A stretch of 48,223 nucleotides of DNA, taken from IMG/VR virus record IMGVR_UViG_2897375277_000006; one strand, given 5' to 3'. Numbering within the stretch: position 1 is the stretch's first letter; each line of letters opens with the position of its first letter. Position numbers: made by a program. This document shows, one piece after another, positions 3,001 to 9,000 of this stretch. Source of the DNA: a virus (taxonomy: Duplodnaviria > Heunggongvirae > Uroviricota > Caudoviricetes).

Positions 3001-6000
3001 TGGGCCATGTAAGCCGATTTTATGGCCTCGAAACCACCGAGCCGGAACTTCATGAAATCCCGGGAGGTAAACGGGCATTTCAGCTCAAGGCCGTTGCCGT
3101 CACTGCATAAACCATCGGGAGAGCAGGCGGTGCGCATACTTTCGTCGCGATAGATGATCGGGGATTCAGTAACATTAACGCCGGAAGTGAACTCAAAGAG
3201 GGCTCTGGCGTCGTTCTCGTACTGTTTTCCCCAGGCCAGCGCCTTAGCGTTAACTTCCGGAGCCACACCGGTGCAAACCTCAGCAAGCAGGGTGTGGAAG
3301 TAGGACATTTTCATGTCAGGCCATTTCTTTCCGGAGCGGGGTTTTGCTATCACATTGTGAACTTCTGAAGCGGTGATGACGCCGAGCCGTAATTTGTGCC
3401 ACGCATCATCCCCCTGTTCGACAGCTCTCACGTCGATCCCGGTACGCTGCAGGATAATGTCCGGTGTCATGCAGCCACCTTCTGTTCAGAGGCTTTCTGT
3501 TTCAGGAATCCAAGAGCTTTCACTGCTTCGGCCTGTGTCAGTTCTGACGATGCGCGAATGTCGCGGCGAAATATCTGGGAACAGAGCGGCAATAAGTCGT
3601 CATCCCATGTTTTGTCCAGGGCAATCAGCAGAGTGTTAATCTCCTGCATGGTTTCATCGTTAACCGGAGTGATGTCGCGTTCCGGCTGACGTTCTGCAGT
3701 GTATGCGGTATTTTCGACAATGCGCTCGGCTTCATCCTTGTCATAGATACCCGCGAATCCGAAGGCCAGACGGGCACACTGAATCATGGCTTTATGCCGT
3801 AACATCCGTTTGGGATGCGACTGCCACGGCCCCGTAATTTCTCTGCCTTCGCGGGTTTTGAATGGTTCGCGGCGGCATTCATCCATCCACTCGGTAACGC
3901 AGATCGGATGATTACGGTCCTTGCGGTAAATCCGGCATGTGCAGGATTCATTGTCCTGCTCAAAGTCCATGCCATCAAACTGCTGGTTTTCATTGATGAT
4001 GCGGGACCAGCCATCGACGCCCACCACCGGAACGATGCCGTTCTGCTTATCAGGAAAGGCGTAAATTTCTTTCGTCCACGGATTAAGGCCGTACTGGTTG
4101 GCGACGATCAGCAATGCGATGAACTGCGCATCGCTGGCATCACCTTTAAATGCCGTCTGGCGAAGAGTGGTGATCAGTTCCTGTGGGTCGACAGAATCCA
4201 TGCCGACACGTTCAGCCAGCTTCCCTGCCAGCGTTGCGAGTGCTGTACTCATCCGTTTTATACCTCTGAATCAATATCAGCCTGATGGTGAGCAATGGTT
4301 TCAACCATGTACCGGATGTGTTCTGCCATGCGCTCCTGAAACTCAACATCGTCATCAAACGCACGGGTAATGGCTTTTTTGCTGGCCCCGTGGCGTTGCA
4401 AATGATCGATGCATAGCGATTCAAACAGGTGCTGGGGCAGGCCTTTTTCCATGTCGTCTGCCAGTTCTGCCTCTTTCTCTTCACGGGCTATCTGCTGGTA
4501 GTGACGCGCCCAGCTCTGAGCCTCAAGACGATCCTGAATGTAATAAGCGTTCATGGCCGAACTCCTGAAATAGCTGTGAAAATATCGCCCGCGAAATGCC
4601 GGGCTGATTAGGAAAACAGGAAAGGGGGTTAGTGAATGCTTTTGCTTGATCTCAGTTTCAGTATTAATATCCATTTTTTATAAGCGTCGACGGCCTCACG
4701 AAACATCTTTTCATCGCCAATAAAAGTGGCAATAGTGAATTTTGTCTGGATAGCCATAAGTTTTTTATCCATTTTTGGGGACTCCTGGCTGATTAAGTAT
4801 GTCGATAAGGCGTTTCCATCCGTCACGTAATTTACGGGTGATTCGTTCAAGTAAAGATTCGGAAGGGCAGCCAGCAACAGGCCACCCTGCAATGGCATAT
4901 TGCATGGTGTGCTCCTTATTTATACATAACGAAAAACGCCTCGAGTGAAGCGTTATTGGTATGCGGTAACGCCGCACTCAGGCGGCCTTGATAGCCATAT
5001 CATCTGAATCAAATATTCCTGATGTATCGATATCGGTAATTCTTATTCCTTCGCTACCATCCATTGGAGGCCATCCTTCCTGACCATTTCCATCATTCCA
5101 GTCGAACTCACACACAACACCATATGCATTTAAGTCGCTTGAAATTGCTATAAGCAGAGCATGTTGCGCCAGCATGATTAATACAGCATTTAATACAGAG
5201 CCGTGTTTATTGAGTCGGTATTCAGAGTCTGACCAGAAATTATTAATCTGGTGAAGTTTTTCCTCTGTCATTACGTCATGGTCGATTTCAATTTCTATTG
5301 ATGCTTTCCAGTCGTAATCAATGATGTATTTTTTGATGTTTGACATCTATTCATACCCTCACAGATAAAAAATCGCCCTCACATTAGAGGGCAAAGAAGA
5401 TTTCCAATAATCAGAACAAGTCGGCTCCTGTTTAGTTACGAGCGACATTGCTCCGTGTATTCACTCGTTGGAATGAATACACAGTGCAGTGTTTATTCTG
5501 TTGTTTATGCCAAAAATAAAGGCCGACTATGCGGCCTAAAATTACTTAACCAATGATGCTGCATATTCGATAAGGTAAAGCTTTGGGGCCAGCCAAATTT
5601 TTAACCAAGTCATATTGATTGCTACAGCAATAATAAAATTTACCCACAGAACAAAAACTGCAGCTAATGGTAAGATTAGAAAACTAATCTCACCGTTACT
5701 TTCCCAAATCATAGTCGGTTTGTATTTAGTCTTCCCCTTATCCCATGACCATCCTTCATCATCGAACTTACCAATTTCAACTTTTTGGTACTGTTTCTTC
5801 ATAAACCAGAAAACCAGCGGGATTGTTAAAATGGCTATTAATGTTTTAATCAGACTGTCAACCATATTCCATAGCAGCAACTGATGAACAACATCAGGAA
5901 TCTGTGCCTGGATAAATGAGACAGCCGTGTCTATTCCATTACTGGCTTTTTGCAATAGTTCTATGAGAATCTTATTTGCCTGTTCTTCCATATATCACCT

Positions 6001-9000
6001 CAAATAAGTGGTTTGCTGCCTAATTTCATTTTCTGGCGACCAACACAAGTCACACCCATTTCACTGCGTGGCTTGCTGTAATAAATTCGGTTAGTTCAGA
6101 CAATAAAAAAAACCATCGAAGTGGGCTATGACCATTTTTTATTTGGATTTCGTTGGTGAGCGTGGTTAACAACTCTGTGCATTACATCCTCATATTTTTC
6201 ATCTTCAATTTTTTCAACATCGCGAGGAAATGGTGTTGCTAATGCTTTGTCAACTTTGTCCATTGGGTCTTCATTAATCTTATATTCAGGACCGTCATCT
6301 ATAGCATTAAATCCAGGTGTTACACCGTTTTTTAATGCATATGCTATCCTCTTTTCCCATCTCGCTATTCTCCTCCTGTCTCGAGATGTAAGGCCTCTAT
6401 CAGATACTTTTCTGTTTTGTCCGCGGTCAGGATTAACATAAATAGTCTTTTTCACCATAAGCATACTCAATAAGCACCGTACGGTGGTTTACTGTACAAT
6501 TTTATTTTTTGGACTGCATGTATTTTGTTTCCTAATGGGTTTGAATCCTTGTAATAAATACTTCTATTTTTTCGAACGAATTCTTCTTTCTTCTTGTAGC
6601 AAAGGCTTCCCAGTGATGCTGCTTTGTCTGCTCTGACGCAACCAGAGAGCTTTAGCGCAATTTTTCGCGCCAGTGCTTCATTACTTCGTCGCTCGGCAAT
6701 AAGTTCTGCTCTGCGAGCTTTGTAGCGGCTTTTTGCTGTACCTTTGGATTCTTTCCAGACTATGGTTACCATGATGGTCTCCTTTAAGTGGCTTTGGCGC
6801 ATGACGCGTCGAGGTGCTTATCTTCTCGATCGCTGTCTTGCAGCTGCAATTCGCGCCATCCCCAAAACCACTCAAGTTCTGGTCTCAACGGTTAGGTTGA
6901 GAGTTCGTCGATGTTAAAGAGCCTGCCAATCTGTTCCGTTTGGCTTCCAGCGTCCTGCTGATGGCTTAAATTTAAGACTTCTTAATTTGTAGGTCAACTG
7001 TATTTTTGAAGAAAACTTAATTTTATGGGCGTGAATTTAGTTTGTCTTTGATTTTTAACGGGAAATAAAAAAGGGGCGAAAGCCCCTTAAGGAAGGTTTG
7101 CTAGCTTGGCATCAACGACAACGCCAATGATTTTACAGTTCCCATTGATTTCAATCATTGGGTATTGTGGATTGAGTGGTTTCAGGAATTTTCTACCGGC
7201 ATCAATAACTAACTTTTTGAATGTCGCCTCGTTTTCTCCTTCAAGTTTGGCGACTACCAGCTTTCCATTACGTGGTTCGACTTCTGGGTCGACGAGAATA
7301 ATCATCCCCTCAGGAATACTCAGTCCTGCCGGGGCAGTCATTGAGTCGCCTTTAACGTCGAGCCAAAAAGAGTCTTCAGAACAATCTACCGTTGTGTCGT
7401 ACCAGTTATCTATTGCACGCCTATGATATGGCTCTACAGCTTCCATCCAACATCCTGCGCTTACCCAACTAATTAGAGGATACGAACCTCTTGGAGCATG
7501 CCTGCTGTGATAGGCAATGTTTGAAAGACTATCCTCTCCTTTCAACAGGTAATCAGGGGAGCACTGCAAAGCCTTGGCTAAGGCCAATAGGTTTTCGCCA
7601 TTGGGCTCAGTTTCAGATCGCTCCCATTGGGAAATAGCAACATTAGACACGCCAACCATCTTGCCAAGGGCAGCCTGCCTAATCTTGAGTTCTTTTCTGC
7701 GAGCGCGAATACGCTCACCCATCAGTTGTGTATTCATAGTTAAGACATCTTAAATAAACTTGACTTAAGATTCCTTTAGCAGATAATTTAAGTGCCCTTT
7801 AATTTCGGAGCGAGTCTATGTACAAAAAAGATGTTATTGACCACTTCGGAACCCAGCGTGCTGTTGCTAAAGCACTAGGCATTAGCGATGCAGCAGTCTC
7901 TCAGTGGAAAGAAGTTATCCCAGAGAAAGACGCCTATCGATTGGAAATCGTTACAGCTGGCGCCCTGAAGTATCAAGAAAGTGCTTACCGCCAAGCGGCA
8001 TAAGTAAATTGCTCTTTAACAGTTCTGGCCTTTCACCTCTAACCGGGTGAGCAAACATCAGCGGCAAATCCACTGGGTATGCCGCTATAACTCCATATCA
8101 ATATAGGAAAATTAACAAATGGCACAAGCAAGTTACAGCAAGCCAACACAGCGAGAAATTGATCGCGCAGAAACAGATTTACTCATCAACCTGTCAACGC
8201 TTACACAGCGAGGTCTGGCAAAGATGATTGGCTGTCATGAATCGAAGATAAGCAGAACGGACTGGCGGTTTATTGCTTCGGTCTTGTGTGCTTTCGGAAT
8301 GGCATCAGACATCAGTCCGATTAGTAGGGCTTTTAAGTATGTGCTTGATGGAATCACAAAGAAAAAATCCCCGGTGGCCGCCGGGGACTCTAAGCAAATT
8401 GATATGCAATTCTGAGGGGATTACTGGATCAATCCACAGGGGTCATTATGACAAATACAGCAAAAATACTCAACTTCGGCAGAGGTAACTTTGCCGAACA
8501 GGAGCGTAATGTGGCAGATCTCGATGATGGTTACGCCAGACTATCAAATATGCTGCTTGAGGCTTATTCAGGCGCAGATCTGACCAAGCGACAGTTTAAA
8601 GTGCTGCTTGCCATTCTGCGTAAAACCTATGGGTGGAATAAACCAATGGACAGAATCACCGATTCTCAACTTAGCGAGATTACAAAGTTACCTGTCAAAC
8701 GGTGCAATGAAGCCAAGTTAGAACTCGTCAGAATGAATATTATCAAGCAGCAAGGCGGCATGTTTGGACCAAATAAAAACATCTCAGAATGGTGTATCCC
8801 TCAAAACGAGGGAAAATCCCCTAAAACGAGGGATAAAACATCCCTCAAATTGGGGGATTGCTATCCCTCAAAACAGGGGGACACAAAAGACACTATTACA
8901 AAAGAAAAAAGAAAAGATTATTCGTCAGAGAATTCTGGCGAATCCTCTGACCAGCCAGAAAACGATCTTTCTGTGGTTAAACCGGATGCTGCGATTCAGA

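Follow-up and report, generated by a model that had tools for sequence, protein, structure and literature searches.

An HK022-type nun and an independently distributed membrane-protein gene in the ral position of a lambdoid prophage with phage-21-type antitermination

What do the two small genes that separate N from ea10 in the pL operon of a lambdoid prophage encode, and do they belong together? The question is raised by the IMG/VR virus record IMGVR_UViG_2897375277_000006 (Caudoviricetes), a stretch of 48,223 nucleotides that we analysed as a whole and refer to here as the window. A sequence-only reading had described the two genes as unrecognised, had placed them in the slot that holds ral and sieB in lambda, and had proposed that they form an exclusion or anti-defence pair expressed early after induction. 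Both open reading frames (ORFs), at 6126-6470 (-) and 5542-5991 (-), exist as described, downstream of N, upstream of ea10 and in the pL direction, and both are clearly, as judged from their sequences, true genes and not chance ORFs, since they match PHROG profiles with E-values of 5e-71 and 3e-58, respectively, and occur as 100% identical copies in six sibling prophages. The interval is indeed the ral position, as ral fills it in phage 21 and CUS-3, and it is a mosaic one, which holds IS903 in HK022, a 207-residue protein in mEp235 and small ORFs in mEpX1. Homology searches gave a name to only one of the two proteins, which is Nun; the other belongs to PHROG 3054, a family without assigned function. 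Taken as a whole, the locus is best explained by two unrelated cassettes, nun and the membrane-protein gene, that were very probably inserted successively into the pL operon.

By sequence, the upstream ORF is a nun gene of the HK022 type, coding for a transcription termination/arrest factor. Its product is bipartite, as had been noted, its N-terminal part being basic and rich in arginine and its middle acidic, and the reading frame stands, save that the 114-residue version with a TTG start at 6470 is over-extended: from the identity with HK022 Nun and with the protein in PDB 6ALG, the likely start is the ATG at 6458 (110 codons, 6126-6458 (-)) or the ATG at 6464. Counted from ATG 6458, 109 of 110 residues are identical to HK022 Nun and 108 of 109 to chain N of the cryo-electron microscopy structure 6ALG, as are all 26 residues of the arginine-rich peptide whose structure was solved with lambda boxB RNA (PDB 1HJI). 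The profile matched is PHROG 5632, “Nun-like transcription termination factor”. The sole difference from HK022 Nun, a Ser to Arg change at residue 11 that is also found in mEp235, lies outside the arginine-rich motif (ARM) and the tail that binds RNA polymerase (RNAP). The C-terminal ...HRVVNHAHQRNPNKKWS is identical to that of 6ALG, and H93, R94, N97, H98, H100, R102, K106, K107 and W108, all of which have been mutagenised (PMC5386594), are unchanged with respect to HK022 Nun.

That this gene looked unrecognised follows from the absence of profile models and from its database labels. Models for Nun are lacking in Pfam and NCBIfam alike, and scans of Pfam (E ≤ 1) and NCBIfam returned no match for it; RefSeq labels the gene, which we found in 220 of 5,426 complete E. 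coli genomes (about 4%), “hypothetical protein” or “transcriptional regulator”. The description is thus apt for the automatic RefSeq annotation but not for the gene, which is named Nun in the GenBank records of phages mEp235, mEpX1, HK75 and O276 and whose product has solved structures. The tandem of N and nun is also already annotated, in mEp235, mEpX1 and PA28, and a literature search on mEp235 or on the co-occurrence of N and nun found no discussion of it. None of the three proteins scanned against PADLOC matched a family at E ≤ 1.

Through its ARM, Nun attaches to the boxB hairpin in lambda nut RNA, in competition with lambda N (PMC5386594, PMC4124055), and inserts its C-terminal tail (H93 to W108) into the elongation complex, where it blocks translocation (PMC5386594); it is by virtue of these two activities that HK022 lysogens exclude lambda and lambda imm434 (PMC5386594, PMC4124055), the known targets of Nun, which have nut sites in common (PMC4124055). 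The antitermination system of the prophage itself is, from its sequence, of the phage 21 type. A promoter scan found a pL-like promoter (TTGACC, 17-nucleotide spacer, TAAATT) at 6969-6997 (-), with the same site in mEp235, and a phage-21-type nutL follows at 6883-6922 (-), with boxA GCTCTTTAAC at 6922-6913 and the boxB hairpin TCTCAACCTAACCGTTGAGA at 6902-6883. This nutL is an exact and single match in the window (0 expected by chance) and is identical to the annotated nutL of phage 21, as the nutR region (about 8010-8050) is to its phage 21 counterpart. The N antiterminator (6467-6772 (-); PHROG 271, E 5e-31) starts at ATG 6772, not at 6802, and has 101 residues, of which residues 1-57, ARM included, are identical to phage 21 N (N21) and the C-terminal ~40 are a diverged variant (N') common to mEp235. 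A search that allowed up to 2 mismatches found no lambda boxB anywhere in the window, and nut sites of the 21 type are said to be insensitive to Nun. Because both N and the nut sites are of the 21 type and a lambda boxB is absent, Nun should spare the prophage's own transcripts. A lysogen expressing it would arrest RNAP on transcripts with lambda-type nut sites, and lambda and lambda-nut phages would be excluded. The idea of exclusion thus holds for one of the two genes, Nun being a lambda-excluding transcription-arrest factor, by a mechanism that the sequence-only reading had not foreseen.

How nun came to lie directly behind a phage-21-type N may be read from the mosaic structure of the interval, all of whose segments were compared on the minus strand. 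Phage 21 matches 7000-6550 (-) with 94.7% identity, over pL, nutL and the 5' part of N, and mEp235 matches 7000-5999 (-) with 97.7%, over nutL, N', nun, its terminator, an N remnant and a linker. HK022 matches 6584-6120 (-), the 3' end of N' and nun, with 96.3%. Similarity to phage 21 returns at 6092-5983 (-), with 97% over an N 3' end and the ribosome-binding linker, and again at 5530-5300 (-), with 96.5% over the sequence downstream of ral and then ea10; in between, 5991-5543 (-) matches PhiR46_1 with 87.5% identity over the membrane gene only, and this similarity ends exactly at the start and stop codons of the gene.

Nun thereby has a copy of the N 3' end on either side, and the two copies have diverged. 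The one upstream (6467-6584 (-)), which belongs to the stretch of 96.3% identity with HK022 and is also kept there ahead of nun, codes for the C-terminus of the functional N. The one downstream (6000-6092 (-)), which agrees with the N 3' end of phage 21 at 97% identity, is non-coding, although by translation and alignment it still reads …YYSKPRSEMGVTCVGRQKMKLGSKPLI-stop, and it leads into the linker with its ribosome-binding site (RBS) GAGGTGA. A direct repeat matching at 11 of 12 positions, GTATTTATTACA at 6561-6550 and GAATTTATTACA at 6088-6077, marks the points, 473 bp apart, where phage-21-like sequence breaks off and resumes. HK022 is without N, but ~37 codons for the same C-terminus of N have been kept just ahead of its nun (positions 4070-4195 of the comparison segment), and this relic translates to VVRKNRSIYCKDSNPLGNKIHAVQKIKLYSKLPYGAY. 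Because N 3' copies flank nun on both sides and HK022 retains an N relic, the sequences suggest an insertion of nun into the end of N, followed in HK022 by loss of the 5' part of N together with the nut site. This looks like a different history from that conveyed by the usual wording, in which HK022 “substituted the N protein with Nun” (PMC9378689). The linker itself, TTATTTGAGGTGATATATGG (5983-6002), is also found after N in phage 21 and recurs in CUS-3 both before ral and before the membrane gene (2163-2180 and 2492-2509 of the comparison segment), a pattern that suggests a recombination joint for the exchange of cassettes in the early operon. As a separate observation, the junction of N and nun carries an 8-bp hairpin with a T-rich tail, GTACGGTGGTTTACTGTAC, at 6479-6497 on the plus strand, which on the pL strand lies just upstream of the nun start codon and is conserved in HK022 and mEp235.

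The two genes are distributed independently. We found nun without a homologue of the membrane gene in five loci (mEp235, mEpX1, PA28, PDP110P1 and HK022), and the membrane gene without nun in seven loci outside this lineage (PhiR46_1, HK633, CUS-3, Stx2_EH2086, a Vibrio phage, a phi92-like phage and an N4-like phage). Its contexts in the latter are varied: it directly follows N in HK633 and Stx2_EH2086 and ral in CUS-3, separates the lysis genes from terminase in PhiR46_1, forms an island on the opposite strand among the head-tail genes of the Vibrio phage, and is part of the early/middle gene blocks of the virulent phi92-like and N4-like phages. Among the 5,426 complete E. coli genomes, of which 220 carry nun, the membrane gene is present in 130 (at least 80% coverage), and the two are contiguous in 3. 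With the genes so distributed, the suggestion that they form a pair is not supported. Nine of 190 E. coli matches to the membrane gene are on plasmid records (e.g., NZ_CP101226.1; one of them 46 kb), which may be phage-plasmids.

The membrane gene (5542-5991 (-)) is a single-ORF cassette in the position of ral, with a strong RBS (GAGGTGA) 6 nucleotides upstream of its ATG, and its 149-residue product matches PHROG 3054 over its full length (residues 1-149). Of the earlier description as a multi-pass membrane protein, the membrane location stands but the number of segments does not exceed two (residues 46-64 and 103-125), so that we describe it as a two-pass inner-membrane protein. In an alignment of 67 sequences, the acidic N-terminal 45 residues (…IPDV..QLL.W) and a C-terminal motif, WLxIWxAPKLYLIEYA, are conserved, the two hydrophobic segments and the loop of 25-50 residues vary freely, and the invariant residues Q37, W41, A135, K137 and Y143 are all present in our protein. 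The family is large, with 442 proteins, all labelled “hypothetical”, in a word-indexed search, and 1,897 cluster representatives at E ≤ 1e-3 or 602 at E ≤ 1e-10. Foldseek searches returned only uncharacterised homologues from BFVD and nothing from the PDB, and a profile search of the PDB gave the beta-1 adrenergic receptor alone, at an E-value of 1.9, which is noise. When the family itself was scanned, PHROG returned only families of unassigned function or labelled “membrane protein”, and Pfam, for the 67 members, scattered weak matches stemming from the hydrophobic segments only, none of them to a holin. Single stray tape-measure matches in the PHROG scan were discounted as composition effects. 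In HK633, the annotation splits the homologue into two ORFs (gp43 and gp42; segment 2191-2866), apparently because of a frameshift or a mistake in the annotation.

Downstream of the membrane gene, the minus strand carries two terminator-like hairpins with T-tracts, at 5537-5520 and 5394-5373, in line with the earlier description, and a terminator scan of the region found 9 such sites against 2.9 ± 1.8 in shuffles. The first terminator (5510-5537 (-)) consists of AGGCCGCATAGTCGGCCT and TTATTTTT, and the second (5363-5394 (-)), TTGCCCTCTAATGTGAGGGCGA followed by TTTTTT, corresponds to the one annotated in phage 21 between ral and ea10.

How the two genes would be expressed, and what the second might do, can be read from this arrangement to some extent. 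The HK022 prophage reportedly has a constitutive promoter, PNun, just upstream of the nun coding sequence, and as the ~115 bp upstream of nun are ~96% identical to HK022, PNun should by homology lie within 6467-6584; we infer from such comparisons both that nun is expressed in the lysogen and that the prophage is immune to its own Nun. For the membrane gene we recognised no separate promoter; soon after induction or infection it would be expressed from the pL transcript that N antiterminates, and in its product the conserved N- and C-terminal helices may do the work, with the variable transmembrane hairpin as an anchor. By analogy with T4 Imm, P22 SieA and HK97 gp15, we tentatively propose for it a role in superinfection exclusion at the level of the envelope, because it is small and membrane-anchored, has conserved extramembrane helices, is mobile in the manner of a moron, and would be expressed early in temperate and virulent phages alike. 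In T4, imm and sp lie in early regions of a virulent phage. A number of results count against this picture of a lysogen protected by Nun and, in addition, by an excluding membrane protein. The promoter scan found no site scoring at least 9/12 upstream of nun and so did not locate PNun, for which reason expression of nun in the prophage rests on the 96% DNA conservation with HK022. For the membrane protein, the positive-inside rule is ambiguous, with positive charge after the first transmembrane segment and a negative N-terminal tail, a pattern that slightly favours termini facing the periplasm; the AlphaFold2 model, a helical hairpin, is of moderate confidence only (pLDDT, the predicted local distance difference test score, of 68); Pfam (E ≤ 1), NCBIfam and PADLOC gave no match, and no similarity to known exclusion proteins was seen. 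Moreover, its presence in virulent phages fits a role in the lytic cycle at least as well as it fits exclusion.

The terminator of nun brings in a closer coupling of the two genes. In mEp235 and HK022, a 7-pair hairpin with a T-tract lies directly 3' of nun and passes the terminator scan (3407-3424 and 3721-3738 of the respective comparison segments), whereas its counterpart in the window (6105-6125 (-); CCCACTTCGATGG followed by T8) fails it. Two changes, found here and in the six sibling prophages, break the stem (CCCACTTCGATGG as against the intact CCCACTTCGGTGGG), and the fold energy after nun is -6.1 kcal/mol as compared with -10.3 and -15.1 kcal/mol in mEp235 and HK022; this decay concerns the locus and leaves the Nun protein itself untouched. 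If PNun is active, transcripts might hypothetically run through into the membrane gene, and nun and the membrane gene would then be a functional unit, a prophage-expressed, two-layer exclusion system that combines transcription arrest with an envelope block. The lack of any promoter-like site between the two genes and the strong RBS in front of the second agree with such a unit, but a T8 tract and a weak stem persist after nun, the untranslated gap of 134 nucleotides could permit Rho-dependent termination, and the activity of PNun is presumed here. The adjacency of the genes is, furthermore, limited to one lineage, and there is for this reason no evidence of selection for the combination, so that we regard a functional unit as improbable. 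A different role or target for Nun itself, such as the regulation of the prophage's own pL and pR or joint action with N, might be read from the position of nun 8 nucleotides after N in the same operon and from the S11R change relative to HK022 Nun. We rejected it as scarcely credible: residue 11 is outside the ARM and the RNAP-binding tail, the ARM agrees in full with the peptide whose structure was determined with lambda boxB, the prophage's own boxB hairpins are of the 21 type, and nun mutants of HK022 grow and lysogenise normally (PMC4124055). Two unrelated cassettes, of which nun would act against lambda-type nut sites, thus remain our preferred reading of the locus.

For the membrane protein, the proposal of exclusion has to be set against two others. 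It could be a lytic-cycle host-takeover or counter-defence factor, directed, for example, against a membrane-bound abortive-infection or protease system, or affecting membrane physiology; this is possible, if unlikely. The early/middle location of the gene in the strictly virulent phi92-like and N4-like phages speaks for it, as does the company it keeps in lambdoid phages, where it has no promoter of its own and lies in the N-dependent pL operon with the host-modulating ral, kil, cIII and gam; however, the protein has no homology to known anti-defence proteins, and in PhiR46_1 and the Vibrio phage its gene is inserted by itself, in the manner of a moron, into late or structural regions, which is more typical of genes that benefit the host. 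A function in the timing of lysis, as a holin or an antiholin-like protein, would suit its small size and two transmembrane segments, and the PhiR46_1 copy lies ~1.6 kb downstream of a holin-lysozyme-Rz cassette. Yet PhiR46_1 has its own annotated holin, lysozyme and Rz, the Pfam scan of the 67 family members detected no holin, and the gene is mostly distant from lysis genes and here belongs to an early operon (ORFs of the size of lysozyme and Rz genes are present in the window at 18032-18993, a match in size only); we considered this function very improbable and rejected it. Envelope-level exclusion therefore stays our working proposal for this protein, a tentative one. Its most far-reaching form, in which PHROG 3054 would comprise very widespread early inner-membrane blockers of secondary infection or of membrane-associated host defence, joined here with nun in one exclusion operon by decay of the nun terminator, appears doubtful to us.

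The surroundings of the two genes are those of a lambdoid prophage, as seen from gene content and from ORF and profile annotation. They comprise the integrase (1-1074), exo, bet and gam (2790-4674), cIII with its Rfam thermoregulator (4860-4918), ea10 (4978-5346), a P22-c2-type repressor (7087-7737) and a P22-type cro (7818-8003), with lambda-type O and P downstream; an Rfam scan of 4800-8200 gave nothing beyond the known cIII thermoregulator. Prophages in six genome assemblies agree at 99.5-99.7% identity with an 8.4-kb stretch around the interval from N to ea10. The nearest database copies of the 149-residue protein are all labelled Escherichia albertii, and this species is probably the source of the prophage. 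Elsewhere in the window, we found, upstream of Q, an oppositely oriented gene (13046-14005 (-)) for an LpxR-like lipid A deacylase of the outer membrane and, near the right end of the prophage, two genes for NleG-family type III effectors (45240-45875 (+) and 45950-46594 (+)), cargo that is typical of the prophages of attaching-and-effacing pathogens and fits an E. albertii host. At E ≤ 0.001, Pfam gave no match for a 440-residue ORF at 46901-48223 (-) and a 249-residue ORF at 15340-16089 (+).

Nun and its role in exclusion were already known, and what our analysis adds is the annotation gap, the evolutionary scar at the junction of N and nun, the decayed terminator and a large uncharacterised family of membrane proteins. 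Mainly, it fixes the annotation gap, as nun is carried by ~4% of complete E. coli genomes and goes unnamed in RefSeq. It also indicates that the carriage of Nun alongside an N system other than that of lambda is routine, which softens the textbook notion of N having been substituted with Nun (PMC9378689). With ~1,900 clusters in temperate and virulent phages, PHROG 3054 is a reasonable candidate for functional screens, though not otherwise exceptional.

When set beside known systems, the membrane protein has its closest counterparts in its PHROG 3054 relatives, among them ECRS218_0047 of CUS-3, gp42/43 of HK633 and gp220 of Phi92, with which it has in common the overall architecture, the conserved termini and the two transmembrane segments; in the lambdoid relatives, however, the middle part is only 46-49% identical, and no member of the family has an assigned function. 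To T4 Imm, P22 SieA and HK97 gp15 the likeness is one of functional analogy only (small proteins of the inner membrane with moron-like or early genes), without similarity in sequence or profile. P22 SieA has about 162 residues, three transmembrane segments and an FxRYPxEAxxFNK motif (PMC10883804), and with two segments and no such motif our protein was ruled out as a SieA-type protein. The locus corresponds to the ral/sieB slot of lambda, phage 21 and P22-like phages in that it occupies the same place between N and the terminator preceding ea10 or cIII, and in phage 21 and CUS-3 the same RBS-containing linker precedes ral. In the window itself ral is absent, and neither Nun nor the 149-residue protein has a match to Ral or SieB (Pfam at E ≤ 1; in PHROG, families 5632 and 3054 only).

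Nun, for its part, is as in HK022: 99% identical over its full length, with the same ARM and C-terminal RNAP-binding residues, and encoded on the pL transcript just to the left of the immunity region, behind the same ~115 bp of upstream sequence. In contrast to HK022, which has put sites and no N, the prophage described here has an intact N and a 21-type nut, a decayed terminator, and Arg in place of Ser at residue 11. Close to the arrangement described here are the tandems of N and nun in mEp235, mEpX1, Kapi1, PA28 and Stx1a-converting phages, which have the same nutL-N'-nun block, extending in mEp235 (97.7% over 7000-5999) through the remnant of the N 3' end and the RBS linker. What differs among these tandems is the cargo that follows the linker, a 207-residue protein of the Nmad5 family (according to RefSeq) in mEp235, two small ORFs in mEpX1, an unrelated ORF of 156 residues in PA28 and, in our prophage, the two-pass membrane protein.

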